This document shows, piece by piece, positions 1,721 through 26,645 of a stretch of 45,410 bases of DNA (position 1 is the first letter of the stretch; each line of letters begins with the position of its first letter). The DNA is from an uncultured Planctomycetia bacterium (GTDB lineage Bacteria > Omnitrophota > Gorgyraeia > JABMRG01). The notes under the pieces were generated by a model. The model was not told the origin of the DNA and made no database searches. It was given only the letters and a program-made list of their open reading frames with translations. A program made the position numbers and the translations under genes. Where the stretch lies: contig CAZGAS010000003.1 in NCBI GenBank assembly GCA_964523875.1, positions 1-45,410 on the forward strand, written 5' to 3'.

Positions 1721-1755
1721 CACAATACACATCACGCAATACGCAATACGAAACT
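1721..1755 (+). repeat. Degenerate heptamer tandem array (CGCAATA family)
   Basis: CACAATA CACATCA CGCAATA CGCAATA CGAAACT fills the entire spacer between the stop at 1720 and the ATG at 1756. Confidence 0.85.
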
Positions 1756-2730
1756 ATGAAGCATTATATTATTAAAAGACTTATTAATATTGTCCCCATG
1801 TTGCTGGGCATATCGATTATATCATTTTGTGTGATACATCTCGCGCCAGGAAGCCCTGTTGATTCTGTAACAACACTAAATCCAAAGGTCTCGTTTGAGG
1901 CAAGAGAGAAACTGATCGCGCAATATGGATTGGATAAGCCGCTCGCTATACAGTATTTAAGCTGGCTAAGAAGGCTCGCGACATTCGATTTTGGAGTATC
2001 ATACAGTGATGGACAAAGGGTTATAAACAAGATTGTGGCTCGTGTACCAATAACATTTCTTATAAATATACTATCCTTATTTTTTATATTGTTGATAGCC
2101 ATACCAATAGGTATAACGAGCGCTGTAAGGGAAGGCTCTTTTTATGACCGCTCTATGACGATTTTTGTTTTTATAGGGTTTGCTATGCCGGGTTTCTGGC
2201 TCGCGCTTATGTTTATGTCATTCTTTGGCATAACCCTCGGCTGGCTTCCTGTGCAGGGCATCATCTCGCTTGGTTTTGACAGGTTATCGCTCCTTGGTAA
2301 GATTCTTGATATTGGAAAACATCTTATCCTGCCTGTTATTGTATCGTCTTTCGGCTCTCTCGCGGCTATGAGCAGATATATGCGGAATAATATGCTTGAG
2401 GTGCTGCATAAGGATTATATCCAGACAGCGCGCGCAAAGGGGCTTTCTGAGAATAGCGTTATATACAAGCATGCCTTAAAGAATGCCATCTTACCTATTA
2501 TTACCATACTTGGACTTTCTGTACCAGGGCTTATAGGCGGTAGTGTTATAGTCGAGTCTATATTCGGTATTCCTGGCATGGGAAGGCTTTTTTATGAATC
2601 AGTTATGGGAAGAGATTACCCCGTGATAATGGCAGTGCTTGTAATAGGCGCTCTATTAACATTGCTGGGAAACCTTTTAGCTGATATATCATACTCATTA
2701 GCAGATCCCAGGATAAGATATGAGAGATAG
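1756..2730 (+). CDS. Peptide ABC transporter permease (OppB/DppB-like)
   Basis: YIIKRL start, GLDKPL..QY, EAA-loop [20 protein letters not shown] end; several TM segments. Confidence 0.92.
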
Positions 2731-3568
2731 GTATAAATTATACTTATTATATTCTGTATTGTCTAAGAACAGGATAGTGGTCTTTGGCGGGGTATTGATA
2801 GGTGTCCTGACGCTTCTGGCTCTATTCGCGCCTTTAGTCGCCCCATTTGACCCCCTCGATATCAGCATAAAAGATGCCCTGCTTGCACCTTCAAGAACAC
2901 ATATCTTCGGTACAGACCACCTGGGCAGGGATCTATTTAGCAGAATTATCTTTGGGGCGAGAATATCTCTATCAATAGGTTTTGTCGCGGTAGGGGTATC
3001 AGTTTTGATAGGCTTGGTAGTGGGCTCTGTGGCAGGCTACTATGGCAGGAGAGTAGATACAGTACTTATGAGGCTTGTTGATATTATGTTATGTTTTCCA
3101 TCGTTCTTTCTTATCCTTGCGGTTGTCGCGATGCTTGAATCAAGTATAATAAATATCATGGTAGTAATCGGCATAACGAGCTGGATGGGTGTAGCCCGTT
3201 TAATAAGGGCGGAGATATTGAGTCTAAAGGAGAGAGAGTTTATCCTTGCCTCAAGGGCAGTAGGCGCAAGTGACTTTAGGATTATAGTAAGGCACCTTAT
3301 GCCTAACGCTATAGCGCCTGTCCTGGTAAGCGCTGTCCTGGGTGTAGCAGCTGCGGTATTGCTGGAATCGTCATTGAGTTTTTTAGGCTTAGGAGTCCAG
3401 CCACCGACACCGAGTTGGGGCAATATACTTATGGAAGGGAAGGCGTCTTTAGGAGTCTGTTGGTGGCTTATGTTTTTTCCGGGAGTATTTATACTGATGA
3501 CAGTTTTAGGCTATAACCTGTTAGGCGAGGGGTTAAGAGAATATTTTAATCCCAGAAAAAGAATATGA
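2720..3568 (+). CDS. Peptide ABC transporter permease (OppC/DppC-like)
   Basis: [40 protein letters not shown] motifs. Confidence 0.92.
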
Positions 3569-4404
3569 TAAATATAAATGATCTAACAGTAGAGTATTAT
3601 AGTGGCCAGTCAGTCCATGGCGTTACTCGGGATTCTTCAGTAATAAGTGATGAAACAGACACCGGAACTAAGGCTGTTGATAATGTGCGCCTGAAGATTC
3701 CGGAAGGTGCTATTTTTGCCTTGGTAGGAGAGTCCGGTTGCGGAAAAACTACGCTTGGACTTGCCATTACCAGGCTTATCAGCCAGAGAGACGGTAATAT
3801 TACATCAGGTTCTATCCTGCTTGATAATAAGAACATACTCAAGTTGTCACAGAAGGAGCTTGAGAACATCCGTGGAAGGCGGATTTCGTATATATTCCAG
3901 GAGCCTGCTTCATCTTTTAACCCTGTCTTTACTATCGGCCAACAGATAAATGAGGTATTGCTCGCGCATAAGATAACAACAAAAAAGAATGTAAAAGAGG
4001 TTACAATAGAATCGTTATTAAAGGCGCGGCTTGCTGACCCGGAACGCGTATATAAATTATACCCGTATCAGCTCTCAGGCGGTATGAAACAACGCGCAAT
4101 GATAGCTATGGCAATATCCACAAGGCCTAAGTTACTAATAGCGGATGAACCTACAACAGCCCTTGATACCGATACAGAGAATGAGATACTAAAGCTTCTT
4201 TTAGGGTTACGCAAAGAGCTAGCATTGTCTGTGCTTTTTATAACGCACAATATCCGTATTGTGCGGAAAATAGCGGACTGGATAGCTGTTATGCATCAGG
4301 GGAAGATAGTAGAAGTAGGCTTGGCAGAAAAGGTACTAAGGAATCCCAGACATGAATATACAAAACTCCTGCTTTTCTCAATGCCTGAAAAACTAAGGCT
4401 GTGA
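3565..4404 (+). CDS. Peptide ABC transporter ATP-binding protein (OppD/DppD-like)
   Basis: Walker A GESGCGKT, LSGGMKQR signature, Walker B LLIADEPTTALD, PRHEYTKLL. Confidence 0.92.
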   Translation: MININDLTVEYYSGQSVHGVTRDSSVISDETDTGTKAVDNVRLKIPEGAIFALVGESGCGKTTLGLAITRLISQRDGNITSGSILLDNKNILKLSQKELENIRGRRISYIFQEPASSFNPVFTIGQQINEVLLAHKITTKKNVKEVTIESLLKARLADPERVYKLYPYQLSGGMKQRAMIAMAISTRPKLLIADEPTTALDTDTENEILKLLLGLRKELALSVLFITHNIRIVRKIADWIAVMHQGKIVEVGLAEKVLRNPRHEYTKLLLFSMPEKLRL

Positions 4405-4429
4405 GGCATCTTTATTTGAGAGGATTGTA

Positions 4430-5077: not shown

Positions 5078-5092
5078 TTATTCAATTTTTGT

Positions 5093-5170: not shown

Positions 5171-5662
5171 TTGAAGACTATTATTAGAAAAGCGGATATC
5201 AAAGATGTGCCTAAGATGCAGGGCCTTATAGCAGGGTTCGCGAAGAAGGATCTTATGCTGGCACGTTCCTTAATAGACCTTTACGAGAATATCAGGGATT
5301 ATTTTGTCGCGGAACAGGAAAAGGTTGTTATCGGCTGCTGCGCGCTTCATATCTGCTGGAAAGACTTAGCTGAGGTAAAGGCATTAGCTGTTGATGAAGA
5401 TATCCATGGTAATGGGGTTGGTAGGCGATTAGTCAAGGAAGCACTGAAGGATGCGAAGGCCTTAAGCATAAAAAAAATATTTTGCCTTACCTATGTACCT
5501 GGTTTTTTTAAGGCATTTGGTTTTAAAAAAATAGATAGAAAACTACTTCCTCATAAGATATGGACAGAATGCCTGCAGTGCCCTAAATTTCCGGATTGCG
5601 ATGAACAGGCTATGATGCTCGTATCGCGTACGATGCAATACGAGAGACGAGAGACGAGATAA
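5171..5662 (+). CDS. argA: GNAT N-acetyltransferase, short ArgA-like (N-acetylglutamate synthase)
   Basis: LYENIRDYFV, LAEVKALAV, GNGVG acetyl-CoA loop, LPHKIWTECLQCPKFPDCDE motif typical of short ArgA; TTG start with SD. Confidence 0.75.
   Translation: MKTIIRKADIKDVPKMQGLIAGFAKKDLMLARSLIDLYENIRDYFVAEQEKVVIGCCALHICWKDLAEVKALAVDEDIHGNGVGRRLVKEALKDAKALSIKKIFCLTYVPGFFKAFGFKKIDRKLLPHKIWTECLQCPKFPDCDEQAMMLVSRTMQYERRETR
5618..5661. repeat. Heptamer array (short inverted arm plus CGAGAGA arm) inside the argA 3' end
   Basis: CTCGTAT CGCGTA ... TGCAATA CGAGAGA CGAGAGA CGAGATA followed directly by the leuC ATG. Confidence 0.75.
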
Positions 5663-8600: not shown

Positions 8601-8624
8601 AGGTAAAGGTAGAGGTAAAGGTGG
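8601..8624 (+). repeat. Hexamer tandem array (AGGTAR)
   Basis: AGGTAA AGGTAG AGGTAA AGGTGG; same unit as 21167-21196. Confidence 0.75.
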
Positions 8625-8630
8625 AGTGCT

Positions 8631-9685: not shown

Positions 9686-10456
9686 ATGAAAAACATAAAG
9701 ATTGAGATAGAATACGACGGAACCAATTATCATGGTTGGCAGATTCAACATAGAAAATCTGAGAGTATCAGAACAGAGAAGACGATACAGGGTGTAATTG
9801 AAAGAGTCTTAAGCGGTATATTACAGGAAGAGATAAAGGTAAGTGGTTCAGGTAGGACTGATAGTGGCGTTCATGCCGTAGGACAGGTTGCGAATTTCAA
9901 GACAAAATCTAAGATGCCCATGGCTGTTATGCAAAGGGCGCTTAACTCACTCCTGCCAAAAGATATAGTTATTGTTGATATCGAGGAAGCGAATTTAAAT
10001 TTTCATGCCCGGTTTGACGCCCTTTCAAAGACCTACCGTTACCAGATACTTAATCGCGCTTATTCTACGTCATTTGATAGGTTATACCAGCTTCACGTCT
10101 CTTATAAGCTTGACGCGAAACTTATGGCCCGCGAAGCACGCGCGTTAATAGGCAGAAAAGATTTTAAATCTTTCCAGGCGGCAGATAAGAAAGAACGCAA
10201 CTCTATAAGAAATATCAAGAGGTTATCTGTGTGCAAAGACGGCACGATAATAAATATTGATATAGAGGCTAATGGTTTTTTGTATAATATGATACGCAAT
10301 ATTGTTGGCACGCTTATTGGGATAGGCAGGGGAAAACTCCCCCCTGGAAGCATGCGGAAGATATTATTGGCAAAGGACAGGGCCAAGGCAGGCTCAACAG
10401 CTCCGGCTAAGGGTCTTTCACTTATGCGTGTAAAGTACAGAAGCATTAAGCATTAA
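9686..10456 (+). CDS. truA: tRNA pseudouridine(38-40) synthase
   Basis: YDGTNYHGWQ, GRTDSGVHA catalytic Asp, FHARF, GFLYNMIRNIVG. Confidence 0.96.
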   Translation: MKNIKIEIEYDGTNYHGWQIQHRKSESIRTEKTIQGVIERVLSGILQEEIKVSGSGRTDSGVHAVGQVANFKTKSKMPMAVMQRALNSLLPKDIVIVDIEEANLNFHARFDALSKTYRYQILNRAYSTSFDRLYQLHVSYKLDAKLMAREARALIGRKDFKSFQAADKKERNSIRNIKRLSVCKDGTIINIDIEANGFLYNMIRNIVGTLIGIGRGKLPPGSMRKILLAKDRAKAGSTAPAKGLSLMRVKYRSIKH

Positions 10457-10620
10457 GTTTCTTTCCTGGGGCTTTATTATTGCCCTTGGCGTATTTTGTT
10501 ACAACAGGATATTTAGGCAATAAGAGCGTTAGTTGAGGAATTCGATATTTACTAGGGTCCTTTAGATGATCCCGATTGGTTGCATCTTCAGGTCGCTTTG
10601 CTCGGGTACAGGGTTAATTC

Positions 10621-10739: not shown

Positions 10740-11168
10740 GTGAAGACATATATGGCGAATAATAAGGATATAAACCAGAAATGGTTCTTAGTTGATGCCA
10801 AAGACAGGGTTCTTGGAAGGCTCGCGACTCGTATAGCTATTCTTCTGCGCGGAAAACACAAACCAGAGTATACCCCGCACGTAGATTGCGGTGATGGAGT
10901 TATTGTTATAAACGCAAGCAAGATAAGGGTTACCGGCAAGAAGATGCAGGATAAAGAGTATGTTACATATTCAGGATATCCTGGAGGCCGCCGTGTAAAG
11001 ACTATGGATTATATGATGAAGCGTTATCCTGATAAGGTAATAAGACAGGCAGTTAAAAGAATGATACCCGACACATCCCTGGGAAGGCAGATGTTAAAGA
11101 AATTGAAGGTATATGCTGACGCGGAGCATTCACATAAGGCACAGAAACCACAGGAACTAAACGTATAA
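10740..11168 (+). CDS. rplM: 50S ribosomal protein L13
   Basis: WFLVDA..VLGRLA, LRGKHKPEYTPHVDCGD, SGYPGG; GTG start. Confidence 0.98.
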   Translation: MKTYMANNKDINQKWFLVDAKDRVLGRLATRIAILLRGKHKPEYTPHVDCGDGVIVINASKIRVTGKKMQDKEYVTYSGYPGGRRVKTMDYMMKRYPDKVIRQAVKRMIPDTSLGRQMLKKLKVYADAEHSHKAQKPQELNV

Positions 11169-11187
11169 TCAGAGGGGAATAAATTAG

Positions 11188-11583
11188 ATGGTAGATGAGG
11201 CTATATATAAGGCAACAGGCCGCCGTAAAGAGGCAGCAGCTCGTGTGGTAATGAAACCGGGGAGTGGTACCTTTACGGTTAATAAAAGATCTTTAGAGGA
11301 TTACTTTCCAAGAGAGACACTAAGGATGATTATACAGCAGCCGTTCGAGGTTTGTGAGCTTGTTGGAAAATATGATATAAGTGTATTAGTTAACGGTGGC
11401 GGCACATCCGCGCAGGCGGGCGCTGTTCGTCATGGTATTTCAAGGGCACTTGTTGAACTTGATGAGAACCTTAAATCCAAACTCAAGAAGGCAGGTTTTA
11501 TGACAAGGGACCCCCGCATGAAAGAGCGTAAAAAGTATGGCCAGAAAGGTGCCAGGAGGAGGTTCCAGTTCTCTAAGCGTTAA
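11188..11583 (+). CDS. rpsI: 30S ribosomal protein S9
   Basis: [43 protein letters not shown]. Confidence 0.98.
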
Positions 11584-11600
11584 TATAATTTATTGGATTT

Positions 11601-11669
11601 TTTTTGGTGCTCGGTTTTAGGTTATTGGTTATTGCCGAAAACCAGATAACGAAAACCGAATACCGAAAT
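11601..11669. repeat. Inverted pair of heptamer arrays (TTWTYGG / CCGAAWA)
   Basis: TTTTTGG TGCTCGG TTTTAGG TTATTGG TTATTG followed by CCGAAAA CCAGATA ACGAAAA CCGAATA CCGAAAT. Confidence 0.8.
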
Positions 11670-11680
11670 TAGCGCGAAGT

Positions 11681-11714
11681 GCCTATTTTATCGATTGACA
11701 AGATAGGCTTTTTT
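11681..11714 (+). terminator. Intrinsic terminator of rplM-rpsI
   Basis: Imperfect stem GCCTATTTTATC/GACAAGATAGGC (one G-U pair, one mismatch) followed by TTTTTT. Confidence 0.75.
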
Positions 11715-11724
11715 GTTTTATAAT
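11695..11724 (+). promoter_or_regulatory. Sigma70 promoter of the arg/lys/pan/nad cluster
   Basis: Consensus TTGACA (11695-11700), 18-nt spacer, TATAAT (11719-11724). Confidence 0.75.
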
Positions 11725-11764
11725 TATAAAACTATATACTATAAATAAGTACTGGGAGTCAGAT

Positions 11765-13978: not shown

Positions 13979-13980
13979 TT

Positions 13981-14136
13981 GTCACGCGTTATGCGCCTGC
14001 CTGCTGGTAGGCAGGTATCGCGTAAAATATTTAAACGCACAACCCCGTAAAGCTCCTTCGGAGCAACGGGGCAGGCGCACAACCCCGTAAAGCTCCTTCG
14101 GAGCAACGGGGCAGGCGCACAACGCAATACGAGATA
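13981..14136. repeat. Inverted heptamer arrays interrupted by three GGCAGG-ended hairpins, including an exact 40-bp tandem duplication
   Basis: GTCACGC GTTATGC G[CCTGCCTGCTGGTAGGCAGG]TATCGC ... (CGCACAA-CCCCGTAAAGCTCCTTCGGAGCAACGGGGCAGG)x2 at 14036-14115, then CGCACAA CGCAATA CGAGATA. Confidence 0.9.
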
Positions 14137-14975
14137 TGAGAGAGCAGATACTAAAAGATTCGCAAAAATATATAGAGCAGTTTAAGGAAAAGGTCTTTGT
14201 TATCAAGTATGGCGGTAGCATGTTGGATGATAAGGTGCTTTCGGATTCCGTTCTTGATGATATAACATCTTTTCATAATTACGCGATAAAGATAGTCTTT
14301 GTTCATGGAGGTGGCGGCGCGATAAGCAGATTAATGCAGCAGAAAGGTAAAGAGTCCAGATTTGTTGATGGTTTAAGAATTACTGATAGAGAGACAGTAA
14401 AGATAGTAGATGAAGCGCTTACATCTGTTAATGAGGGTTTTGTCCAGAGGATAGGCTCAAGGGGAGTTCTGGCGGAGCCCATATTAAGCAGCAGGAGCCT
14501 TACGATAAAGGCAAAGAAGAGGCCAGGTACTATCTCTGAAGATTTTTTAGGAGATATAGATTCAATAGCCACTAGTTATATAGAGGATGCGTTATCAAGG
14601 AAGGCTATTCCTGTTATATCGCCTGTCGCACAAGGCAGTGATAATATGCCTTATAATATAAATGCTGATATCGCGGCAGCAGCGATTGCCTCAAAGCTAT
14701 GCGCGGAAAAATTGATATTATTAACAAATGTGAAAGGCGTTATGAGGGATAAGCTTGATGAAGGCAGCCTTATTTCACATATTAGTGAAGTAGAAGCGCT
14801 TGAACTTATTCAGAACAATATTATAGAAGGCGGCATGATACCAAAGGTAAGAGCAGGTATAGACGCGTTGAATAAAGGTGTAAAAAAGGTTCATATAATA
14901 AGCGGAAAGATACCCCATTCACTCTTGTTAGAGGTCTTTACTAATGAAGGTATCGGAACTGAGATTGTGAGGTAG
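14136..14975 (+). CDS. argB: Acetylglutamate kinase
   Basis: VIKYGG, VHGGG, GLRITD, NINAD, GGMIPKV, HSLLLEVFT.EGIGT. Confidence 0.95.
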   Translation: MREQILKDSQKYIEQFKEKVFVIKYGGSMLDDKVLSDSVLDDITSFHNYAIKIVFVHGGGGAISRLMQQKGKESRFVDGLRITDRETVKIVDEALTSVNEGFVQRIGSRGVLAEPILSSRSLTIKAKKRPGTISEDFLGDIDSIATSYIEDALSRKAIPVISPVAQGSDNMPYNINADIAAAAIASKLCAEKLILLTNVKGVMRDKLDEGSLISHISEVEALELIQNNIIEGGMIPKVRAGIDALNKGVKKVHIISGKIPHSLLLEVFTNEGIGTEIVR

Positions 14976-14982
14976 TTTAATT

Positions 14983-16167: not shown

Positions 16168-17084
16168 AGAAAGATCTTATATCAATAAAAGACCTGTCAA
16201 TAGATGAGATTAATAATATTCTTGAGCTTGCTCAAGTGTTAAAATCAGACCCATCCGCTTATTATGAAAAATTAAACGGACAGTCTCTTGGTCTTATATT
16301 TCAGAAACCGTCTAACAGGACAAGGGTATCTTTTGATGTCGGCATGTATCAGCTAGGTGGACATACTGTTTATCTCGGGTCTGATGATATAAAACTTGGC
16401 GTAAGGGAGGCAACAAAGGATATCGCGCATACATTATCAAGATACCTTGATATTATTGTTGCCAGAACTTTTTTTCATAAGGAGGTGCTTGATCTTGCTG
16501 ATAATGCTACTATACCGGTCATAAATGGCTTAAGTGACCTGTTGCACCCGTGCCAGGGGTTAGCGGATCTCTTTACTATAAAAGAGAAATTTTCTAAACT
16601 GGATGGCCTCACATTAGCGTTTATTGGGGATGGGAATAATGTTCTCCACTCACTCTTATACGCTACCTCAAAAACAGGAATCAATATTAGGATAGCCTCA
16701 CCAAAAGGCTATGAGCCTGATAAGAATATACTTGCCCAGGCAAAAGAGATTGCTAAAGATGTTGGTTCAACTGTAGAGGTTGTTGACGGCAAAGATGAGG
16801 CAGCAACTGGCGCTGATATATTATACACAGATGTATGGGTATCGATGGGGCAGGAATCTGACAGGAAGAAAAGATTAGAGGATTTTCATGACTTTAGGCT
16901 TGATGCAGAGCTTCTTGCTAAGGCAAGGCCTGAGTCTGTTGTAATGCATTGCCTGCCTGCCCACAGGGGCGAAGAGGTAACAGGCGAGGTAATAGATGGG
17001 CCTCATTCTATAGTATTTGACCAGGCTGAAAACAGGCTCCATATCCAAAAAGCAATATTACTTAGATTACTAAAAAAGGATTAA
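16164..17084 (+). CDS. argF: Ornithine carbamoyltransferase
   Basis: KPSNRTR (STRTR variant), HPCQ, GDGNN, TDVWVSMG, HCLP, QAENR. Confidence 0.95.
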   Translation: MKKDLISIKDLSIDEINNILELAQVLKSDPSAYYEKLNGQSLGLIFQKPSNRTRVSFDVGMYQLGGHTVYLGSDDIKLGVREATKDIAHTLSRYLDIIVARTFFHKEVLDLADNATIPVINGLSDLLHPCQGLADLFTIKEKFSKLDGLTLAFIGDGNNVLHSLLYATSKTGINIRIASPKGYEPDKNILAQAKEIAKDVGSTVEVVDGKDEAATGADILYTDVWVSMGQESDRKKRLEDFHDFRLDAELLAKARPESVVMHCLPAHRGEEVTGEVIDGPHSIVFDQAENRLHIQKAILLRLLKKD

Positions 17085-17172
17085 GGATTAAGTTTTAAGT
17101 ATTAAGCTCTTAATCCTTAGAGCTCGCTTTGATGCAAATAGATGGCGAGCGTCTTAATTCTTAATACTAAAT
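17081..17172. repeat. Inverted heptamer arrays (TTAAGTA family) with an inserted GCTCGC hairpin
   Basis: TTAAGGA TTAAGTT TTAAGTA TTAAGC / TCTTAAT CCTTAGA [GCTCGC...GCGAGC G, 17122-17151] TCTTAAT TCTTAAT ACTAAAT. Confidence 0.85.
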
Positions 17173-17185
17173 AAGGGAGTTTTAG

Positions 17186-18361
17186 ATGACTAAAAAGATA
17201 GTATTAGCATATTCAGGAGGGCTTGATACCTCTGTCGCTATAAGGTGGCTTAAAGAAAAAGGCTTTGATGTTATAGCCTGCCTTGTGGATGTTGGGCAAA
17301 AGGCGGATTTTCAAAAAGCAAAGGTAAAAGCCAGAAAGATAGGGGCATCCAATGTATATGTTATTGATGCTAAGAATAATCTTATTAATGATTTTATCTT
17401 TCCCGCGTTGAAGGCAAATGCTGTATATGAGGGTAAGTATTTCTTAGCGACCGCGCTTTCAAGGCCATTAATAGCAAAGGTGCTGGCAGAGGTCGCGAAA
17501 AAAGAGAAGGCAAAGTTTGTCGGACATGGCTGTACAGGTAAGGGAAATGATCAGGTAAGGATAGAGGTCTCGCTTTCCGCGCTTGCGAAAGGGCTAAAGG
17601 TTATCGCCCCTGTAAGGGTCTGGGATTTCGCGTCAAGAGAAGCGCAGATAAGGTACGCTAAGACTCATAACATTTCGGTTACCGCGACAAAGAAGAGCCC
17701 GTATAGCTTTGATGAGAATCTATGGGGAATAAGTATAGAATGCGGCGTACTTGAGAATCCTGATACAGAACCGCCTGAAGATGCTTACCAGATAACAACA
17801 GACCCTGTTAAGGCTCCAAAGAAGCCTGTATATGTAACGATTGGTCTTGAAAAAGGAGAGCCTTATAGTATAAATGGCAAGAGGCTTACCCCCATCGCGC
17901 TTATAAACAGGCTGAATATTATAGGCGCTTTACATGGTATAGGCAGAAGTGATATGGTAGAGAATAGGCTTGTTGGCATAAAATCACGAGAGATATATGA
18001 AGCCCCGGCGGCATACATACTCCATACCGCGCATAAAGAGCTCGAGGCATTGGTTCTGGACAGGGAACTCCTGCATTTTAAGGATATAGTGGCTTTAAAA
18101 TATTCAGAGCTAATATATAATGGACTCTGGTACAGTAGGTTAAGAGAAGCGCTTGATAAGTTTATTGGAGACACACAAAAAAACGTTACTGGTGATGTCA
18201 GACTTAAATTGTACAAAGGTACGTGTAGTGTTGTAGGGCGAAGTTCAAAGTTTTCTCTTTACAATGAGAAGTTAGCGACATACACTGAAGAGGATAAGTT
18301 TGACCATACGGCAGCGGAAGGCTTTATAAAAGTCTGGGGCCTTCCTTACGAAAAACGGTAA
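17186..18361 (+). CDS. argG: Argininosuccinate synthase
   Basis: LAYSGGLDTS, HGCTGKGNDQVR, ENRLVGIKSREIYE. Confidence 0.97.
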   Translation: MTKKIVLAYSGGLDTSVAIRWLKEKGFDVIACLVDVGQKADFQKAKVKARKIGASNVYVIDAKNNLINDFIFPALKANAVYEGKYFLATALSRPLIAKVLAEVAKKEKAKFVGHGCTGKGNDQVRIEVSLSALAKGLKVIAPVRVWDFASREAQIRYAKTHNISVTATKKSPYSFDENLWGISIECGVLENPDTEPPEDAYQITTDPVKAPKKPVYVTIGLEKGEPYSINGKRLTPIALINRLNIIGALHGIGRSDMVENRLVGIKSREIYEAPAAYILHTAHKELEALVLDRELLHFKDIVALKYSELIYNGLWYSRLREALDKFIGDTQKNVTGDVRLKLYKGTCSVVGRSSKFSLYNEKLATYTEEDKFDHTAAEGFIKVWGLPYEKR

Positions 18362-18399
18362 TTAGAGCAATAGGCATTCTAAAATAGGTGAACATACCA

Positions 18400-18510
18400 G
18401 TATTGCGTATTGCGTGGTGCGTATCGCGCATAATGAAAATAATATATCTATTAATACAGCTCAAGGCAAATAACGCAATACGATATATACAATACGACAT
18501 ACAAAATACG
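18400..18510. repeat. Inverted heptamer arrays (GTATTGC / ACGCAAT) around a ~45-nt AT-rich spacer
   Basis: GTATTGC GTATTGC GTGGTGC GTATCGC (18400-18427) ... ACGCAAT ACGATAT ATACAAT ACGACAT ACAAAAT ACG (18473-18510). Confidence 0.85.
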
Positions 18511-18520
18511 GAGCATACTT

Positions 18521-19903
18521 ATGAAAAAGATGTGGGGCGGAAGGTTTAAACACGGACAGGACCCTCTATTTTGGAAGTTTCAAAGCTCTATAGATTATGA
18601 TAAAGAGCTGGCTACGTATGATATAAAGGGTAGCATAGCACATGTAAAGATGCTTGGAAAGGCAAGGATTATCCCTGCCAAGGCTGCTCAATCTATTGCC
18701 AGTAATCTTGCGAAGATATTAAAGGAGCTGGAAAATAATGCCTTTAAGATAGACCCATCAGCAGAGGATATCCACAGCGCTATTTACATAGACCTTAAAA
18801 AGAAGATAGGAGATGCCGCGGATTATCTTCATACAGCAAGGTCCAGAAATGATCAGATCGTACTTGATCTAAGGATGTATGCTAAGGATAAGATATCTAT
18901 TCTGGTAGGCCTTATCAGAAAGCTCCAGTCCGCGTTGCTTGACCTCTCGAAAGAGAACGCTGATGTTATTATACCAGGTCTTACCCATACCCAGCATGCT
19001 GTGCCTATTTTATTATCACATCAACTGTTAGCGTATGTTGAGATGCTTGAAAGAGATAGGAAAAGACTCTTGCAGGCGAGGGAGAGGTCTGACGAGATGC
19101 CGCTTGGCGCGTGTGCCATGGCAGGTACTTCGTTTGCCATAGACAGAAAATATGTCGCAAAGCTCCTAGGCTTTAAAAAGGTATGTCAGAATAGCATAGA
19201 CGCGGTTAGTGACAGGGATTTTGTTATAGATATATTATCCGCTATAGCAGTGCTTTTCATGCATCTGTCAAGATTTTGTGAAGACATGATAATTTTTTCA
19301 ACACCCGAGTTTAATATAGTTGAGATAGGAGAGGCCTTTTGCACGGGTTCTTCCATAATGCCCCAGAAGAAGAATCCCGATGCCCTGGAACTTATAAGAG
19401 GAACAAGCGCAAGGGCATACGCCAACTTAAACTCAGTAATGATTATGATGAAAGGTTTGCCCCTTTCATATAACAGGGATATGCAGCTTGACAAGGAGGA
19501 GCTTTTTGATTCTGTCAGTATGACGGAGGATGTCCTTAAGATAATGTCGGGCCTTGTCAGAAGCATAAGGACAAATAAGTCTAATAGGCTAAAGGCCTTT
19601 GAAGACGATGAATCTCTATTTGCTCTTGATATGGCAGATTATCTTGTTAGAAAGGGCTTGACATTTACAAAGGCACATACTATCGCGGGAAAGATTATCA
19701 CTCATTGTATTGATAACAGATTAAAGGTATCAGCGTTGCCAATGCATGAGCTCAAGAGGTTCTCGGATAAGTTTAGCACCTGTTTTTATGAGGAGCTTGA
19801 TGCGGGTAGGTCCGTAGCGAGGAAGAGTTCTGTTGGAAGTACTAATCCCTTTCTTGTTAGGCAGCAGATTAACAAGTGGATAAAAAAGATTAAGGGAAGA
19901 TAG
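18521..19903 (+). CDS. argH: Argininosuccinate lyase
   Basis: MWGGRF, HTARSRNDQ, GSSIMPQKKNPD, YNRDMQ. Confidence 0.97.
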   Translation: MKKMWGGRFKHGQDPLFWKFQSSIDYDKELATYDIKGSIAHVKMLGKARIIPAKAAQSIASNLAKILKELENNAFKIDPSAEDIHSAIYIDLKKKIGDAADYLHTARSRNDQIVLDLRMYAKDKISILVGLIRKLQSALLDLSKENADVIIPGLTHTQHAVPILLSHQLLAYVEMLERDRKRLLQARERSDEMPLGACAMAGTSFAIDRKYVAKLLGFKKVCQNSIDAVSDRDFVIDILSAIAVLFMHLSRFCEDMIIFSTPEFNIVEIGEAFCTGSSIMPQKKNPDALELIRGTSARAYANLNSVMIMMKGLPLSYNRDMQLDKEELFDSVSMTEDVLKIMSGLVRSIRTNKSNRLKAFEDDESLFALDMADYLVRKGLTFTKAHTIAGKIITHCIDNRLKVSALPMHELKRFSDKFSTCFYEELDAGRSVARKSSVGSTNPFLVRQQINKWIKKIKGR

Positions 19904-21172
19904 ATGCATTATTTTAAATATAAAAAGAGCAAGTTATATTGCGAATCAGTCAGTATAGAAGAGATTGCCAAGGATGTAGGCACGCCATTTTATCTGTATA
20001 GTTATAAGACACTTATAAGCCATTACATGAAGATAAAAGAAGCGTTTAAGAGCTTGAAGCCTATTATCTGTTTTTCTATGAAATCTAATTCTAATCTTTC
20101 CGTGTGCAGTGCGCTGCTTAAGGCCGGTGCCGGGCTTGATATCGTTTCGGGCGGAGAGCTCTTCAAGGCGCAAAAAATAGGCGCGTCCCCTAAGAAGATT
20201 GTTTACGCGAGTGTTGGCAAGACTGCTGTTGAGATAAGTAATGCGCTTAAGGCAGGTATCCTGCTCTTTAATGTAGAAAGCATACCGGAGCTTATCCTAA
20301 TAGATAAGCTCTGTGCGCGTATGGGCAAAAGGGGAAAGATCGCGATAAGGGTAAACCCCGGTGTAAAGGCAAAGACGCATAGGTATATTACAACCGGCAC
20401 AAAGGATAATAAGTTTGGTATAGATGAAGACACTACCCTGCGTATTTTTCATGATAGTGCAGGATTTCAACATATCGATATAGTCGGTATACATATTCAT
20501 ATTGGTTCACAGATTACCCAGGCTGACCCATTTCTAAAAGCCATAAAAAAGGTCTCTACCCTGATAGAGGCTATACGTAAGGCAGGACATTGCATAGATT
20601 ATCTTAATATTGGTGGAGGGCTTGGTATTATATATAATGATGAAAAGCCGCAAACAGCAAAGGACTTCGCGAGGGCTGTGACACCTATGCTGAGCAAGCT
20701 TGATGTAAAAATAATACTTGAACCAGGCAGATTTATATCAGGCAATAGCGGTGTATTGGTTACAAGGGTACTCTATATCAAAAATAGCCTAAGTAAGAAT
20801 TTTATGATAGTAGATGCCGGAATGAATGATATTATGCGCCCAAGCCTTTATGGCGCTTTTCACGAGATACTTCCTGTTTCCCGCGGCCTATCCAAGGCAG
20901 AAACGAAGAAATTTGATGTGGTGGGGCCTATATGCGAAAGCGGAGATTTTCTTGCCAAAGGCAGAGAGCTTATAATTCCAGAAGAAGGTGACCTCTTAGC
21001 CGTGATGAGCGCTGGTGCTTATGGATTCTCTATGTCGAGTAATTATAATGCCCGTCCACGTGTAGCGGAGGTTATGGTTATAAACGGAAAATATTATATT
21101 ATACGAAAGAGAGAGTCCTATCGGGACCTTGTAAGGGGAGAAGTTGTTCCGAAGGCGTTGAAGAATAGGTAA
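19904..21172 (+). CDS. lysA: Diaminopimelate decarboxylase
   Basis: FSMKSN PLP Lys, HIHIGSQ, EPGR, GPICESGD, GAYG, SNYN. Confidence 0.96.
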   Translation: MHYFKYKKSKLYCESVSIEEIAKDVGTPFYLYSYKTLISHYMKIKEAFKSLKPIICFSMKSNSNLSVCSALLKAGAGLDIVSGGELFKAQKIGASPKKIVYASVGKTAVEISNALKAGILLFNVESIPELILIDKLCARMGKRGKIAIRVNPGVKAKTHRYITTGTKDNKFGIDEDTTLRIFHDSAGFQHIDIVGIHIHIGSQITQADPFLKAIKKVSTLIEAIRKAGHCIDYLNIGGGLGIIYNDEKPQTAKDFARAVTPMLSKLDVKIILEPGRFISGNSGVLVTRVLYIKNSLSKNFMIVDAGMNDIMRPSLYGAFHEILPVSRGLSKAETKKFDVVGPICESGDFLAKGRELIIPEEGDLLAVMSAGAYGFSMSSNYNARPRVAEVMVINGKYYIIRKRESYRDLVRGEVVPKALKNR

Positions 21173-21251
21173 AGGAAAAGGTGAAGGCGAAGGAAATATA
21201 TATTATAAGGATATAAAATTTAATTCTTTACCTTTACCTCTATCTTTACCT
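21167..21251. repeat. Inverted hexamer arrays (AGGTAA / TTACCT)
   Basis: AGGTAA AGGAAA AGGTGA AGGCGA AGGAAA ... TTACCT TTACCT CTATCT TTACCT. Confidence 0.85.
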
Positions 21252-21270
21252 AAAACTAAGCGAGTTTTAC

Positions 21271-22077
21271 ATGAGAGTTATAAAATTTAGCAAGATGGAA
21301 GCTACGGGCAATGATTTCGTGACATTTGATAACCGAAAAAAGATAATTAGGAATCGTGTATCAGACTTTGCCCGAAAACTCTGTGATAGAAAGCTTGGTA
21401 TCGGCGCTGATGGGCTATTGCTTGTAGAAAACTCCAGAATAGCGGATTTTAAGATGCGCATCTTTAATCCTGATGGTTCAGAGCCTGATATGTGTGGTAA
21501 TGGCGCGCGTTGCGCGGCATTATATGCTAAACTTAATAAGATAGCCCCATATTCTATGCGGATAGATACAAGGGCGGGCTTATTAAGCGCTAAGGTAGGT
21601 AGCGCGAGCGTTAAGATAAATATGACAGAACCTAAGGAGATTCAATTGGGGATAGGCCTTAATCTCATGAATAAGGCCTATAAACTTCATTATATTAACA
21701 CAGGTGTCCCGCATGTAGTCTGTTTTGTTAAGGATGTAGATAGGGTGGATCTTATAGCTATTGGCAGGGCTATAAGGTACCATAGATTGTTTATGCCCGC
21801 GGGGACGAATGCAAATATTGTATCTCTTAAAGGTAGAGCGTCAATCCTGGCAAGAACCTATGAAAGAGGCGTTGAAGATGAAACATTGGCCTGCGGTACA
21901 GGTTCTGTCGCGTCAGCTGTCATATCCGGTATTGTTAAGGGCCTCAAGTCTCCTGTAACGGTACATACCAGGGGAGGGAATTTGAAAATATATTTTACAT
22001 TAAAGAACAATAGTGTTGGTAATGTATTTCTTGAAGGCAAGGCAAGAGAGGTTTTTAAGGGCCAAATAAAAGTTTAA
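21271..22077 (+). CDS. dapF: Diaminopimelate epimerase
   Basis: GNDF, GIGADG, NPDGS..MCGNG, GVPH, ERGVEDETLACGTG. Confidence 0.96.
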   Translation: MRVIKFSKMEATGNDFVTFDNRKKIIRNRVSDFARKLCDRKLGIGADGLLLVENSRIADFKMRIFNPDGSEPDMCGNGARCAALYAKLNKIAPYSMRIDTRAGLLSAKVGSASVKINMTEPKEIQLGIGLNLMNKAYKLHYINTGVPHVVCFVKDVDRVDLIAIGRAIRYHRLFMPAGTNANIVSLKGRASILARTYERGVEDETLACGTGSVASAVISGIVKGLKSPVTVHTRGGNLKIYFTLKNNSVGNVFLEGKAREVFKGQIKV

Positions 22078-22097
22078 TAAACCTAAAGGAGTTCACT

Positions 22098-22976
22098 ATG
22101 TTTAAAGGTTCAATGGTCGCTATAGTAACCCCGTTTAAAAATAATGGTACAGAGCTAGATGAAGGGAAGCTTAAAGATCTTGTGGATTTTCAGATAAGCA
22201 ATAATACCTTTGTTATTGTGCCATGCGGCACAACTGGAGAATCAGCGACTTTATCAATAGAAGAACATGAGAAGGTAATAGATATTGTGATACGAACAGC
22301 CAAAGGCAAGGCCAAAGTAATGGCAGGCACAGGCTCTAACAATACCGGTGAAGCTATAGAACTTACAAGGCACGCTAAAGAGGCTGGAGCGGACGGGGCC
22401 TTAATAATAACCCCGTATTATAATAAGCCTACGCAAGAGGGCATATATCGTCACTTTAAAGCGCTCTCTGATTCAGTAGATATCCCGCTTATAGCATATA
22501 ACATAGCCTCACGCACAGGAACAAATATCACGCCTGAAACTATGCGCAGGCTCTCAACATTAAAGAATGTGGTAGCGGTTAAAGAGGCGAGCGGTGACTT
22601 AAACCAGATGGCTGAAATAAGGTACATGTGCGGTGATGATTTCGGTCTTATATCAGGGGATGATTTACTTACATTTCCTATCCTTGCTATCGGTGGATGC
22701 GGCGTAATATCAGTAATAGCTAATATAATACCAAGGGATGTCTCTGATATGGTAAGCGCTTTTATGAATGGTGATATCGAGAAAGCAAGAGAGCGTTATT
22801 TTAAGATGCTTCCGCTTGTTAAGGCTATATTTATAGAGACAAATCCGATTCCTATCAAGACTGCTATGAGCATACTGGGTATGATAGAACCGGATACGAG
22901 ATTACCAATGTGTAATATATCAGAAGCGAATAAAGATAAACTGAAAATAGCTTTAAGCGAATACGGTTTGATATAA
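22098..22976 (+). CDS. dapA: 4-hydroxy-tetrahydrodipicolinate synthase
   Basis: GTTGES, PYYNKP, YNIASRT, AVKEASG, ETNPIP. Confidence 0.96.
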   Translation: MFKGSMVAIVTPFKNNGTELDEGKLKDLVDFQISNNTFVIVPCGTTGESATLSIEEHEKVIDIVIRTAKGKAKVMAGTGSNNTGEAIELTRHAKEAGADGALIITPYYNKPTQEGIYRHFKALSDSVDIPLIAYNIASRTGTNITPETMRRLSTLKNVVAVKEASGDLNQMAEIRYMCGDDFGLISGDDLLTFPILAIGGCGVISVIANIIPRDVSDMVSAFMNGDIEKARERYFKMLPLVKAIFIETNPIPIKTAMSILGMIEPDTRLPMCNISEANKDKLKIALSEYGLI

Positions 22977-23006
22977 GAACACTACTATCAAAGTAAGGGA
23001 GTCACA

Positions 23007-23813
23007 ATGGTTACACGAATAGCTATCACAGGTTGCTGCGGCAGGATGGGCATGCGTATTGCTTCTTTTGCTTTCGCGGATAAAGATTTTGAAATAGTTG
23101 GAGCTACAGAGATAAGGTCTCATCCGAAGATAGGTTCAAACCTCGGCAGTTTTATAGGAGAAGACGCGCTGGATATACAGGTAACTAGTGATTTGAGCCT
23201 TGCTGTGAAGAACGCGGATGTTATCATAGATTTTACAACACCGGTTATGACACTCTCCAATCTAATGATTGCCAGGAACGCGAAAATACCGATAGTTATA
23301 GGTACTACAGGGCTTATGGATGAAGAGCAAAGGGGCATAGAGGCCAGTGCCAAGGTAATCCCTGTTTTTGCCTCTTCTAACATGTCTATTGGCGTAAACC
23401 TGCTCTTTCGTTTGGTACCTGAATTAGCAAGCGCGTTAGGTGAGGATTATGACATAGAAATAATCGAGATGCACCATAATAAGAAGAAGGATGCCCCGAG
23501 TGGAACTGCCAGGATTTTGGCTCAAAAAATAGCGGAGGCGAAGGGGAAGAGAATAAAAGATATCGGGATATATGGCAGAGAAGGTAACGTGGGCCAAAGG
23601 GGTAAGAACGAGATAGGCATACACGCGGTACGTGCTGGTGATATTGTAGGCGAACATACTGTTATATTCGCGGGTAAACATGAGAGAATCGAGATAACTC
23701 ATCGCGCTAATTCCCGTGACATTTTTGCCAGGGGCGCTTTATCTGCCGCGAAGTATATCGCGGATAGATCACCGGGACTATATAATATGCAAGACGTTAT
23801 AGAAGGAGTTTAG
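23007..23813 (+). CDS. dapB: 4-hydroxy-tetrahydrodipicolinate reductase
   Basis: GCCGRMG, IDFT, GTTG, EMHHNKKKDAPSGTA, GEHTV. Confidence 0.96.
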   Translation: MVTRIAITGCCGRMGMRIASFAFADKDFEIVGATEIRSHPKIGSNLGSFIGEDALDIQVTSDLSLAVKNADVIIDFTTPVMTLSNLMIARNAKIPIVIGTTGLMDEEQRGIEASAKVIPVFASSNMSIGVNLLFRLVPELASALGEDYDIEIIEMHHNKKKDAPSGTARILAQKIAEAKGKRIKDIGIYGREGNVGQRGKNEIGIHAVRAGDIVGEHTVIFAGKHERIEITHRANSRDIFARGALSAAKYIADRSPGLYNMQDVIEGV

Positions 23814-23816
23814 GTT

Positions 23817-24986
23817 ATGATGAATATTGATACATCCAGCAGGCTTAAGAAATTACCACCGTATCTTTTCGCGGAGATAGATAGGATAAAAAAGCAGGCT
23901 ATTAGTGAAGGTAAGGATATAATAGATTTAGGCGTAGGGGACCCTGATAGGCCCACGCCTATGCATATAATAGAGAAGCTTTATGAAGCTGCCCGGGATC
24001 CAAGGAACCATCATTACGCGATGGAGATGGGGCTTTTAAGGCTGCGCGAAGCGATAGCAGCCTGGTATAAACGGCGTTTCAATGTAGAGCTGGATCCTGA
24101 GTCAGAGGTTCTTCCTTTAATTGGCTCCAAGGAAGGAATAGCGCATATACCACTTGCTTATGTAAACCATGGGGATGAGGTATTAATTCCCGATCCTTGT
24201 TATCCTCCGTATAAGTCAGGTACTATATTCGCGGGCGGGGTTCCTTATCTTATGCCGCTTCTTCCTGAAAATGACTTCCTGCCGGATCTTGCCGCGATTG
24301 ATTATCAGGTTGCCAAGCGCGCGAAGATTATGTTCTTAAACTACCCTAATAATCCTACATCAGCAGTAGCGACAGAGGCCTTTTTTAAGAAAGCGATAGA
24401 TTACGCGAATGAGCATGATATCATTGTTTGCCACGATGCCGCTTATTCTGAGATGGCATATGATGATTATAAACCCCAGAGCTTTCTTGAATGCGCCGGC
24501 GCGAAAGAAACGGGTGTCGAGTTTCATTCTCTATCAAAGACTTATAATATGACAGGGTGGAGACTCGGTTTTGCCTGTGGCAACGCGGATGTGATATCAG
24601 CATTAAGAAAAGTAAAATCGAATATTGATTCAGGTATATTTCAGCCTGTGCAATTCGCGGGTATCATAGCCCTTGAGAGTGATCAGTCATATATAGATAA
24701 ACTTAATGCTGTATATCAGCGAAGAAGAGATGTCCTGGTAGATGGCTTAAATTCTCTTGGCTGGAAAGTCGCCAAGCCTAAGGCTACTTTTTATGTTTGG
24801 GTACCTGTGCCACCGGGATACACCTCAAATGAGCTTACAAAATCTTTGCTTGAAAAGGCCGATATCGTTACGACCCCGGGTGTTGGTTTTGGTCCCAATG
24901 GCGAAGGCTATATAAGAATAACATTGACAGTGCCTGAAGAGAGGTTGCAAGAAGCTGTAGACAGGATAAAGAGGCTGCATCAATGA
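23817..24986 (+). CDS. dapL: LL-diaminopimelate aminotransferase (class I PLP)
   Basis: LPPYLFAEID, LGVGDPD, GSKEGI, NYPNNPT, HDAAY, SLSKTYNMTGWRLG; lies within the dap cluster. Confidence 0.85.
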   Translation: MMNIDTSSRLKKLPPYLFAEIDRIKKQAISEGKDIIDLGVGDPDRPTPMHIIEKLYEAARDPRNHHYAMEMGLLRLREAIAAWYKRRFNVELDPESEVLPLIGSKEGIAHIPLAYVNHGDEVLIPDPCYPPYKSGTIFAGGVPYLMPLLPENDFLPDLAAIDYQVAKRAKIMFLNYPNNPTSAVATEAFFKKAIDYANEHDIIVCHDAAYSEMAYDDYKPQSFLECAGAKETGVEFHSLSKTYNMTGWRLGFACGNADVISALRKVKSNIDSGIFQPVQFAGIIALESDQSYIDKLNAVYQRRRDVLVDGLNSLGWKVAKPKATFYVWVPVPPGYTSNELTKSLLEKADIVTTPGVGFGPNGEGYIRITLTVPEERLQEAVDRIKRLHQ

Positions 24987-25741
24987 GTAAGGTGTATGTA
25001 GGCATAGGCTCAAATCTTGGCGACAGGCAGTTGAATATAGATAAGGCATTAGAAAAACTAAAGACAAGAAAAAATATCCAATTTAGCGAAGTCTCAGCTA
25101 TTATAGAGACAGACCCTGTTGGCAATGTCAACCAGCCTAAATTTTTAAACGCCTGCTGTAGAATAGATACAACCCTTTATCCCGATGAGCTTTTAAGCGT
25201 CCTGAAGTCTATTGAGCGTGAAATGGGAAGGGGTAGAGATTCTGCTCCAAAGAGGCTTAATCATGAAGAGCAGTTAAAAGCGCTTGAAGAGGGCAGGAAC
25301 GTGGAGGATATGTCAAGAGGTAAACAATCTCTCGCGCGTAACCCGGAAGATGATGATAAATGGGACCCGCGTATAATTGATCTTGATATACTTTTATATG
25401 ATGATATTATAATGAGAGGAAACAACCTTATTATACCACACAAGCTATTGCATGAGAGAATCTTTGTGTTAGAACCACTTTCCCAGATAGCATCAGAGCT
25501 TATTCACCCTGTGTTTAAAAAATCTATAAGAGATCTCTTAATAGAGTGCAAAGCGCATAATAATACTTCTACTCAAAAGCAGGAGTTACTTGTTAAAGAG
25601 TTCAATGAAAATGCTACGGTACCGGTGCTTGCGCATCCGCAACCCAGTAGCCCAAAGACATTTCTTGGATTAATTTGCAAGTTGCTTAGAATACCATATC
25701 CTAAATTAACACAGACAGGTACCAGGGATGAGGCTCATTAG
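24983..25741 (+). CDS. folK: 2-amino-4-hydroxy-6-hydroxymethyldihydropteridine diphosphokinase, with an internal insertion and C-terminal extension
   Basis: GIGSNLGD, FLNA, PRIIDLDIL, IPH..HERIFVLEPL. Confidence 0.88.
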   Translation: MSKVYVGIGSNLGDRQLNIDKALEKLKTRKNIQFSEVSAIIETDPVGNVNQPKFLNACCRIDTTLYPDELLSVLKSIEREMGRGRDSAPKRLNHEEQLKALEEGRNVEDMSRGKQSLARNPEDDDKWDPRIIDLDILLYDDIIMRGNNLIIPHKLLHERIFVLEPLSQIASELIHPVFKKSIRDLLIECKAHNNTSTQKQELLVKEFNENATVPVLAHPQPSSPKTFLGLICKLLRIPYPKLTQTGTRDEAH

Positions 25742-26576
25742 AAGTTTAAGCGCGATCACTTCCGCTGTAAAGGTGTTTCGAAAGAGTAAAAATAAGATAG
25801 GCTTTGTTCCTACGATGGGAGCTTTCCATGAAGGCCACATTTCGCTTATCAGAAGAGCTAAGAAAGAAAACAACAAAGTAGTAGTGAGCGTATTTGTAAA
25901 TCCTATACAGTTTGGGCCCAATGAGGATTATAGGAAATATCCCAGAGATATCAGCAGGGATAAAGAGCTGGCAGAGAAGGCTGGCTGCGATATTTTATTT
26001 TATCCATCCGCGGGGTCAATGTATCCTAAAGGTTTTAATACCCATGTTGAACCTGAAGGCCTCTCAGCTCTTATGTGCGGCAAGTTACGGCCCGGCCATT
26101 TCAAGGGTGTCGCGACTATTTGCGCGAAATTGTTTAATATTGTAACTCCGGATACAGCGTATTTTGGCCAGAAAGATTACCAGCAGGCTCTTATTATAAA
26201 AAACATGGTTAAGGATCTTAATATGGATATCAGGATTAAGATACTGCCTATCGTCAGAGAGATATCCGGCCTTGCTTTGAGTTCACGCAATAGATATTTA
26301 ACTCCGGCGGAGAGAGAAGACGCAAGGCTGCTTTACAGGGTCTTAAAAAAAGCAAGAAGTATAATAAGGCAAGGAGAGCAGGATTCATCTAAGCTGCGGT
26401 CGATAATAGACAATATATTAAAGAAGCCCGGTATTAAGATAGAGTATATAAGTATAGTTGATCCTGATACCCTTGAGGAGAAGAAGATGATTGATTCAAG
26501 TTTCTTGGTGGCGTTGGCAGTCAAGATTGGCAGGACAAGGCTTATTGATAATATGATGATAAAGATCAAGAATTAA
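25728..26576 (+). CDS. panC: Pantoate--beta-alanine ligase
   Basis: VPTMGAFHEGH, FVNPIQF, RPGHFKGV, FGQKDYQQ, ALSSRN, RLIDN. Confidence 0.97.
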   Translation: MRLIRSLSAITSAVKVFRKSKNKIGFVPTMGAFHEGHISLIRRAKKENNKVVVSVFVNPIQFGPNEDYRKYPRDISRDKELAEKAGCDILFYPSAGSMYPKGFNTHVEPEGLSALMCGKLRPGHFKGVATICAKLFNIVTPDTAYFGQKDYQQALIIKNMVKDLNMDIRIKILPIVREISGLALSSRNRYLTPAEREDARLLYRVLKKARSIIRQGEQDSSKLRSIIDNILKKPGIKIEYISIVDPDTLEEKKMIDSSFLVALAVKIGRTRLIDNMMIKIKN

Positions 26577-26645
26577 GTATTAAGTTGTAAGTATTAAATT
26601 TTGTATTTTTTACTTAATCCTTAATACTTAATGCTTAATACTTTA
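26566..26645. repeat. Inverted heptamer arrays (TTAAGTA / TACTTAA)
   Basis: TCAAGAA TTAAGTA TTAAGTT GTAAGTA TTAAATT ... TACTTAA TCCTTAA TACTTAA TGCTTAA TACTTTA. Confidence 0.88.

Follow-up and report, generated by a model that had tools for sequence, protein, structure and literature searches.

Tandem arrays at operon junctions of a Candidatus Omnitrophota genome as probable arms of a small hairpin cassette family

Short tandem arrays with unit periods of 6, 7 or 8 nucleotides lie at nine gene junctions of a 45,410-nt stretch of DNA (the window; positions 1-45410 of contig C3) from a Candidatus Omnitrophota genome. We propose that these arrays are probably the arms of small hairpin cassettes that make up one family, of which the window holds only gene-less forms. 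A full cassette would consist of a tandem array of about four 6-9-mer units, a gene of about 120 codons encoding a four-helix-bundle (4HB) protein of the PF05635/TIGR02436 type, and the reverse complement of the array. Paired arms with a short spacer would then be cassettes minus their gene, or copies of such remnants, and single arms would be scars at a later stage of decay. The best reading of the family is that it is selfish, with remnants that amount at most to intercistronic hairpins. The source genome (G000) is a 1.41-Mb metagenome-assembled genome (MAG) in 110 contigs, 96% complete.

Arrays exceed chance expectation across the genome

An earlier reading of the window, made from its sequence only, had listed short-period arrays at nine junctions and described most of them as a left arm and a reverse-complement right arm. 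Using Tandem Repeats Finder (TRF) and direct reading of the sequence, we found arrays at all nine places; six are inverted pairs, as had been described, and three are single arms. Across G000, TRF returned 638 rows, whose period distribution peaks at 7 (137 rows, 84 of them intergenic). By crude longest-ORF gene calls, about 9% of the genome is intergenic (771 segments, 130 kb), and this fraction contained 80 period-7 arrays, compared with 4.2 in mononucleotide shuffles and 10.7 after dinucleotide-preserving swaps. Period-7 arrays are therefore not at the chance level that would have spoken against the sequence-only reading, but 7- to 19-fold above it. Altogether, G000 has 111 intergenic array loci, 28 of them clearly paired, at about one junction in ten, as counted with TRF at a score of 30, which overlooks degenerate arms, and in MAGs that are incomplete and whose contigs are broken by repeats.

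A few unit families account for many of these arrays. The TRF rows include AAGTATT (19), AATACGC (16) and AAAGGT (9), and a strict scan for runs of at least three units found TTAAGTA 15 times, AGGTAA 16 times and CGCAATA seven times. The sequence-only reading had held that the arrays are not one dispersed repeat, a statement that needs amending, since every one of the unit families is dispersed as a repeat family in its own right. An inverted partner (score at least 13, within 1.5 kb) was found for 27 of 322 merged arrays, and for two in a reversed-only control. The polarity of the arms was constant: (TTAAGTA)n precedes (TACTTAA)n, (GTATTGC)n precedes (GCAATAC)n and (AGGTAA)n precedes (TTACCT)n. 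Flanking genes were co-directional at 95 of 99 array loci; because the genome-wide base rate is 91%, this context bias says nothing.

Inverted array pairs flank a four-helix-bundle gene

A genome scan for inverted arrays showed that the gaps between paired arms in G000 are mostly 6-60 nt long. Three gaps are of 270-390 nt, and these hold exactly the three TIGR02436 matches of the genome (115, 93 and 54 bits), each of which also matches PF05635 and each of which lies on a contig other than that of the window. One filled cassette has AGGTAA arms (C39:8671-9101, beside an N-masked stretch) and a second has period-8 GGTTATNG arms (C36:11290-11745). In the third, which has TTAAGTA arms, the gene is internally deleted (C12:21035-21371). 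A remnant at C39:11240-11378 retains one arm and about 35 N-terminal codons. Gene-less copies outnumber filled ones by about 10:1.

We extended the comparison to relatives. A TIGR02436 search of the class gave 96 matches in 27 of 41 genomes, and 60 loci from 20 related genomes, together with three stretches of G000 (21 genomes), yielded 74 4HB ORFs. Of these ORFs, 69 had at least 100 nt of sequence on each side, and 51 of the 69 showed inverted flanks scoring at least 25; the reversed control gave one of 69. The suggestion, in the sequence-only reading, that TIGR02436-type genes often have such flanks was thus correct for all three genes of G000 and for most of the wider set. Period 7 dominates among the cassettes, periods 8 and 9 occur, and the units are very diverse. 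The arms comprise about four units, and their median distance from the start or stop codon is 11-12 nt. Our literature search found no paper tying such arrays to PF05635/TIGR02436. Among solved structures, the G000 protein matched only 2gsc (Xanthomonas campestris XCC0516; E 5e-11), an entry with five chains.

The arms also co-vary with the gene that they enclose. In a set of 45 cassettes, protein identity was higher by 0.18-0.20 in pairs with units no more than one difference apart, a gap reached in none of 2000 permutations. The association persists for cassettes drawn from different genomes (19 of 945 pairs with units this close). On a maximum-likelihood protein tree, the unit classes required 30 changes (shuffled mean 37.2, minimum 35; none of 300 shuffles reached 30), and the period-8 and period-9 cassettes formed clades; statistics of this kind, taken over related genomes, overstate independence. 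Because both the unit and the period of the arms follow the protein tree, we conclude that gene and arms are one unit and belong together. Since relatives share labels, the association reflects joint inheritance or movement and is no proof that the protein recognizes the unit.

Genes are lost in place and junctions exchange arrays within a genus

Gene order from rpsI to panD is shared by 12 relatives, and in these we compared the six window junctions of that interval (rpsI-argC, argJ-argB, argF-argG, argG-argH, lysA-dapF and panC-panD). At a given junction, an array may be present, absent or of another unit family. In G003, which ArgH identity places nearest to G000, argJ and argB are separated by 21 nt, argG and argH by 28 nt with a two-unit remnant of another family, and lysA and dapF by 11 nt, where AGGTAAAGGTAAAG is still found; G003 is without nearly all of the arrays, and its operon is otherwise unchanged. 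G001 shares with G000 homologous GTATTGC elements at argJ-argB and argG-argH, the second of which is missing in G003. The argJ-argB junction carries a different unit family in G002 and G008. At argG-argH, which in G002 includes an N-masked stretch, other families or copies occur in G008, G007, G013 and G012, and no array in G010, G009 and G005. Taken over all compared junctions, the arrays of G007, G013 and G012 differ from those of G000 in family or copy, and G010, G009, G005 and G004 carry no array. Junctions thus gain, lose and swap array families within the genus.

The sites of the filled cassettes show the same turnover. At the C36 site of G001, the left arm is followed by TTGAAGATAATAAAAAG, which corresponds to the first five or so codons of the gene and is fused directly to the downstream gene; on its sequence, this state is a direct deletion scar. 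At the same site, a lone arm from another family is present in G003, a gene-less pair from a third family in G007 and nothing in G008. At the C12 site, G003 is empty and the neighbouring stop and start codons overlap, three families stand next to one another in G001, and G002, G008 and G007 each have a different family. Genes are therefore lost in place, as the attached codons at the C36 site, the internal deletion at C12 and the truncated copy on C39 record.

The G002 ortholog of the C12 site (contig C18, locus L075) deserves a separate remark. It consists of a single arm of seven GATGCTG/A units placed right after an upstream gene that ends in GATGCTC and TGA, so that the unit equals six of the seven final bases of that gene, through either in-situ seeding or coincidence.

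Gene-less forms multiply on their own

Three gene-less copies in G000 (C1:65909, C40:8902 and C60:4157) have one common palindromic spacer of about 40 nt between TTAAGTA arms. Because three copies share one spacer, gene-less forms multiply as such and are not only scars. Genomes with more 4HB genes tended to have denser arrays in the DNA sampled (39 genomes; Spearman 0.53, p 0.0006, with no correction for kinship).

A GC-rich hairpin of 33-40 nt (CCCCGTAAAGCTCC...GGAGCAACGGGGCAGG) is nested in some of the arrays. It has 12 copies at nine loci, nearly always within the right arm of CGCAATA or ACGTAGA arrays: positions 14036-14123 of the window, and C2:42417, C16:8205, C31:12357, C36:5532, C39:5998, C43:7288, C64:2872 and C87:225 elsewhere in G000. 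G008 has one copy at the same argJ-argB junction, where the arms belong to another family. It appears to be another mobile hairpin, of smaller size, with the arrays as its targets. Elhai and colleagues reportedly described very small mobile repeats in Nostoc in 2008, which may bear on the nested hairpin.

Points against the cassette origin, and alternative explanations

Several observations weigh against the view that the arrays descend from cassettes. First, none of the six compared junctions of the window is filled in any of the 12 relatives; an origin from filled cassettes at just these places is thus inferred, not seen. Second, a filled unit within one mismatch in the same genome was found for only 10 of 55 gene-less families. 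Permuted genomes gave 4.3 such matches, and 14 of 2000 permutations reached 10; one of the 10 matches is circular, in that the sampled region contains the cassette. Third, GTATTGC ranks second in abundance among the families, yet no copy of it is filled in G000 or among the loci fetched from G001, and the one gene copy with TTAAGTA arms (C12) is broken. Fourth, G013 (a single contig, 89% complete) and G002 have arrays and no detectable 4HB gene. Fifth, the association between protein and unit could be plain co-inheritance. Sixth, searches for RNase III (TIGR02191, PF14622 and PF00636) gave no match in G000 or in 15 other genomes of its order (16 in all). More widely, the domain was not found in 34 of the 41 genomes of the class, many of them 93-100% complete, and had matches in only seven. 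With no RNase III found, excision in the manner of 23S rRNA intervening sequences (IVS) is unlikely in this lineage, and the sole processing step established for IVS elements is removed. Array density was 1.97 per 10 kb in genomes without RNase III (n = 32) and 0.48 in those with it (n = 7; one-sided p 0.02, uncorrected).

The sequence-only reading had taken the window arrays for empty sites or scars of cassettes, for which relatives might show filled and empty states. The decay intermediates (C12 and C39:11240-11378) and the reduction of the C36 ortholog in a congener bear this out in part, and alignment of the relatives' junctions did reveal array polymorphism. Its states are presence, absence or another family, with none filled, and the shared-spacer copies are not only scars. 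We nevertheless regard cassette arms, with gene-less copies that spread, as the probable origin of the arrays. As for function, the arrays would be transcribed inside operon mRNAs, giving imperfect, AT-rich hairpins of 25-40 bp. By analogy with repetitive extragenic palindromic (REP) elements, we infer that these hairpins are most likely neutral or mildly useful intercistronic structures, for example a barrier to 3' exonucleases or an uncoupler of cistrons.

A further hypothesis, which we think unlikely, is that each 4HB protein lineage reads its own unit, perhaps as an oligomer resembling the Avd protein with about one unit per subunit, in a cognate pair like that of REP-associated tyrosine transposases (RAYTs) and REPINs, the hairpin-forming REP doublets. 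Acting in trans, the protein would then maintain or mobilize the roughly 100 arrays that have no gene, or give them structure. Arms of about four units and the five chains of 2gsc would fit, and the higher array density in genomes without RNase III would reflect release from RNase III cleavage; in such genomes, the protein might help to handle double-stranded operon RNA.

It is similarly improbable, in our view, that the arrays spread alone and that the 4HB gene is a separate passenger in pre-existing loops, which would make the window sites unoccupied targets. The arrays of G013 (17 in 58.8 kb) and G002, which have no detectable 4HB gene, would be expected if this were so, as would the roughly 80% of gene-less families that have no filled copy in the same genome. 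The shared-spacer copies demonstrate independent spread, and the 33-40-nt hairpin, by inserting in right arms, indicates that arms can be targets. However, proteins that are 50-68% identical across genomes keep their unit and period, which a passenger could do only through joint movement or cognate targeting. Gene codons remain attached to the arm in the G001 scar, about 35 N-terminal codons remain beside one arm at C39:11240-11378, and arms abut the start and stop codons, all of which argue against a separate passenger.

Quite improbable is a third alternative, in which the arrays are hairpins selected by the host for operon RNA processing, stability, attenuation or termination, and their likeness to the cassette arms is secondary. 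The arrays do lie in intercistronic gaps of long co-directional operons and have stable folds, and the array between rpsI and argC stands where relatives carry GC-rich, terminator-like hairpins. Yet both presence and unit family vary among congeners at one junction, and G003 is nearly array-free with the operon unchanged. The co-directional bias is close to the base rate, and the RNase III domain was not found in G000 or its order. Termination in particular was rejected: none of 18 terminator-like sites (a GC-rich stem with a T run) in 11000-27200 of the window falls on an array. Lastly, it is highly improbable that the arrays arose by plain microsatellite-like slippage in the AT-rich DNA between genes and fell into inverted pairs by chance, given the excess over shuffles, the 27 inverted partners against two in the control, the genome-wide recurrence of a few unit families in fixed polarity and the tie to one gene family, even though the seven GATGCTG units of G002, which copy six of the seven bases ending the upstream gene, hint at local seeding of units.

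Relation to known elements

The full cassette resembles the IVS of Coxiella burnetii and Leptospira 23S rRNA, in which a gene of the PF05635 family ('23S rRNA-intervening sequence protein') likewise lies within a stem of terminal inverted repeats. ORF-less forms of the 23S rRNA IVS also exist. In the window, stem-forming inverted repeats occur at six sites with no PF05635 ORF, which is present at the C39, C36 and C12 sites. Unlike the IVS, which are located in helix 25 or 45, the elements described here occur between protein-coding genes and have arms built from tandem 6-9-mers, with roughly 100 array loci in 1.4 Mb, and no RNase III was found in this lineage. No 23S rRNA gene is present in the G000 assembly. 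Passages of one study describe the Coxiella IVS as a 428-nt element with a 28-bp stem that is cut by RNase III in vitro, and call it selfish (PMC4990558).

Short tandemly repeated repetitive (STRR) units are known from cyanobacteria, GGGGAYT in Nostoc among them. Like these and like repeats of Xanthomonas, the arrays consist of intergenic tandem heptamers, and many of the Xanthomonas repeats are convergent inverted pairs. Unlike them, the arrays in G000 are AT-rich and belong to many families (TTAAGTA, GTATTGC, AGGTAA, CGGTTTT), and the host is a member of Candidatus Omnitrophota and not a cyanobacterium. In the Xanthomonas report, inverted GGGAATC heptamer pairs (70-75) are intergenic and are treated as G-quadruplex repeats; its main text has no instance of 'four helix', 'S23' or 'intervening sequence' (PMC4692102). 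Heptamer direct repeats are described for Beggiatoaceae and cyanobacteria (PMC4679880). Inverted heptamer pairs were thus already known in Xanthomonas, with no link to a 4HB gene in the main text of that report.

Similarities to REP elements and REPINs are that short hairpin-forming inverted repeats are dispersed in operon gaps and that gene-less copies are in excess. In the REPIN-RAYT system (PMC3116915), a single-copy gene sits between repeats of its own type, gene-less copies far outnumber it and gene lineages pair with different repeats, and our elements parallel all of this. Unlike in that system, the 4HB gene has no known nuclease or transposase fold, and the arms are tandem arrays rather than unique palindromes. 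Set against miniature inverted-repeat transposable elements, which carry terminal inverted repeats and target-site duplications and derive from an element with a transposase gene, the arrays show inverted arms and some gene-less copies with a shared spacer; the arm ends are fuzzy, no transposase is known for them, and no target-site duplication was evident when occupied and unoccupied junctions were compared.

The Avd accessory proteins of diversity-generating retroelements are related to PF05635 four-helix bundles. Unlike those systems, G000 yielded no reverse transcriptase (PF00078) and no template/variable repeat pair, and a route through Avd and a reverse transcriptase is without support. 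A link to Y1 transposases was also rejected. G000 has five IS200/RAYT-like genes of this kind (PF01797; C103:1237-1914, C10:971-1453, C33:1221-2195, C61:4493-5605 and C71:4534-5202), none with these period-6/7/8 families within 1.5 kb. They are flanked by palindromes of the GGGGACA/TGTCCCC type, similar to palindromes at several junctions in G012, which are probably a separate REP-like repeat system.

What is new here is the excess and independent spread of gene-less forms, the scar at an orthologous site, turnover within a genus, the association of protein with unit and period, and the missing RNase III. One element family thereby joins, in one lineage, the orphan IVS protein, ORF-less and ORF-bearing IVS hairpins, and an excess of intergenic heptamers. 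It comprises full and gene-less forms with fast turnover at operon junctions and a specificity of gene for repeat that lends itself to laboratory testing. With RNase III apparently lacking, one may ask how the hairpins, and the rRNA, of this lineage are processed.

Array sites of the window

All genes around the arrays are on the + strand, in a block that runs through opp, leuCDB, asd, truA, rplM-rpsI, argCJBDFGH, lysA and dapF to panCD. By NCBIfam names, the nine junctions are oppA-oppB, N-acetyltransferase-leuC, leuB-asd, rpsI-argC, argJ-argB, argF-argG, argG-argH, lysA-dapF and panC-panD. Single arms begin at 1721, 5618 and 8601, and inverted pairs at 11601, 13981, 17076, 18400, 21159 and 26568. 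Spacers range from 0 to 90 nt, no site has a PF05635/TIGR02436 ORF, and no Rfam model matched the window at its gathering threshold. Predicted RNA folds of five of the six pairs were far more stable than those of shuffled sequences (z -3.4 to -6.9), whereas 18400 reached only z -1.7.

The single arms are on the + strand. That at 1721..1755, in the gap between oppA-like and oppB-like genes, is of CGCAATA type with right-arm polarity (TRF 1723-1750, period 7, four copies). At 5618..5662 (TRF 5618-5659), a short GTATCGC/GCAATAC hairpin whose fold is not distinctive (z -1.7) is followed by 2.9 copies of ACGAGAG, and the array stops at the leuC start codon. This array encodes about 13 C-terminal residues of the N-acetyltransferase ORF, in which the NCBIfam match stops at residue 150 of 163. 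In the leuB-asd gap, 8601..8626 contains four AGGTAR units in left-arm polarity and has AGGTGGAG at its 3' end, just before the ATG.

The first inverted pair (11601..11668), between rpsI and the arg promoter, sets a CGGTTTT/GGTTATT arm against a CCGAAAA/CCAGATAA arm, with a predicted RNA fold of -25.7 kcal/mol (z -5.3). Just 3' of it, upstream of argC, 11695-11724 contains a perfect sigma-70 consensus (TTGACA, 18 nt, TATAAT), and the same promoter is kept in the rpsI-argC spacers of relatives. The argJ-argB gap holds a composite element (13981..14131; arm type GTYAYGC...CGCAMAA; z -6.9) in which a small GC hairpin, followed by 2.2 copies of the 40-nt nested hairpin, stands between a left arm GTCACGC GTTATGC and a right arm CGCACAA CGCAATA. 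In the argF-argG gap, a TTAAGNA pair (17076..17172; z -3.4) has two small hairpins in its spacer.

The argG-argH gap (18400..18510) has four GTATTGC units and three to four GCAATAC units around a 45-nt AT-rich spacer, which starts with ATGAAAATA and has TAA at the right arm. Filled GTATTGC cassettes end alike, with an ATG 3-5 nt past the left arm and a TAA abutting the right one; the 41-nt remnant at 18400 is very short for such a comparison. Between lysA and dapF (21159..21251; z -6.4), five AGGTRA units face four TTACCT units across a 30-nt AT spacer, and between panC and panD (26568..26645; z -5.8), four TTAAGTA units face five TACTTAA units across about 11 nt. The stop codons of argF and panC each lie within the first unit of the array that follows. 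The arrays thus rewrite the 3' ends of genes, as the argF and panC stops and the acetyltransferase tail illustrate, and for this reason they matter for annotation and for operon RNA biology.

Among contigs built from four DNA runs of other samples, some diverge from the window exactly at array junctions. One X3 contig skips 11587-11687, and loose ends of X4 and X5 past 18374 read another unit family, with a CGATAACCG-type arm. Taken from assembled sequence, these breaks weakly hint at strain-level replacement or absence of arrays.

Two minor repeats complete the picture. At the 3' end of truA, TRF found 2.4 copies of AAGCATT, of the TTAAGNA family, on the + strand (10441..10457). At 29251-29465, around an ORF at 29027-29350, there are lysine-rich (AAG/AAA) coding repeats of period 15/27, which are unrelated to the junction arrays.

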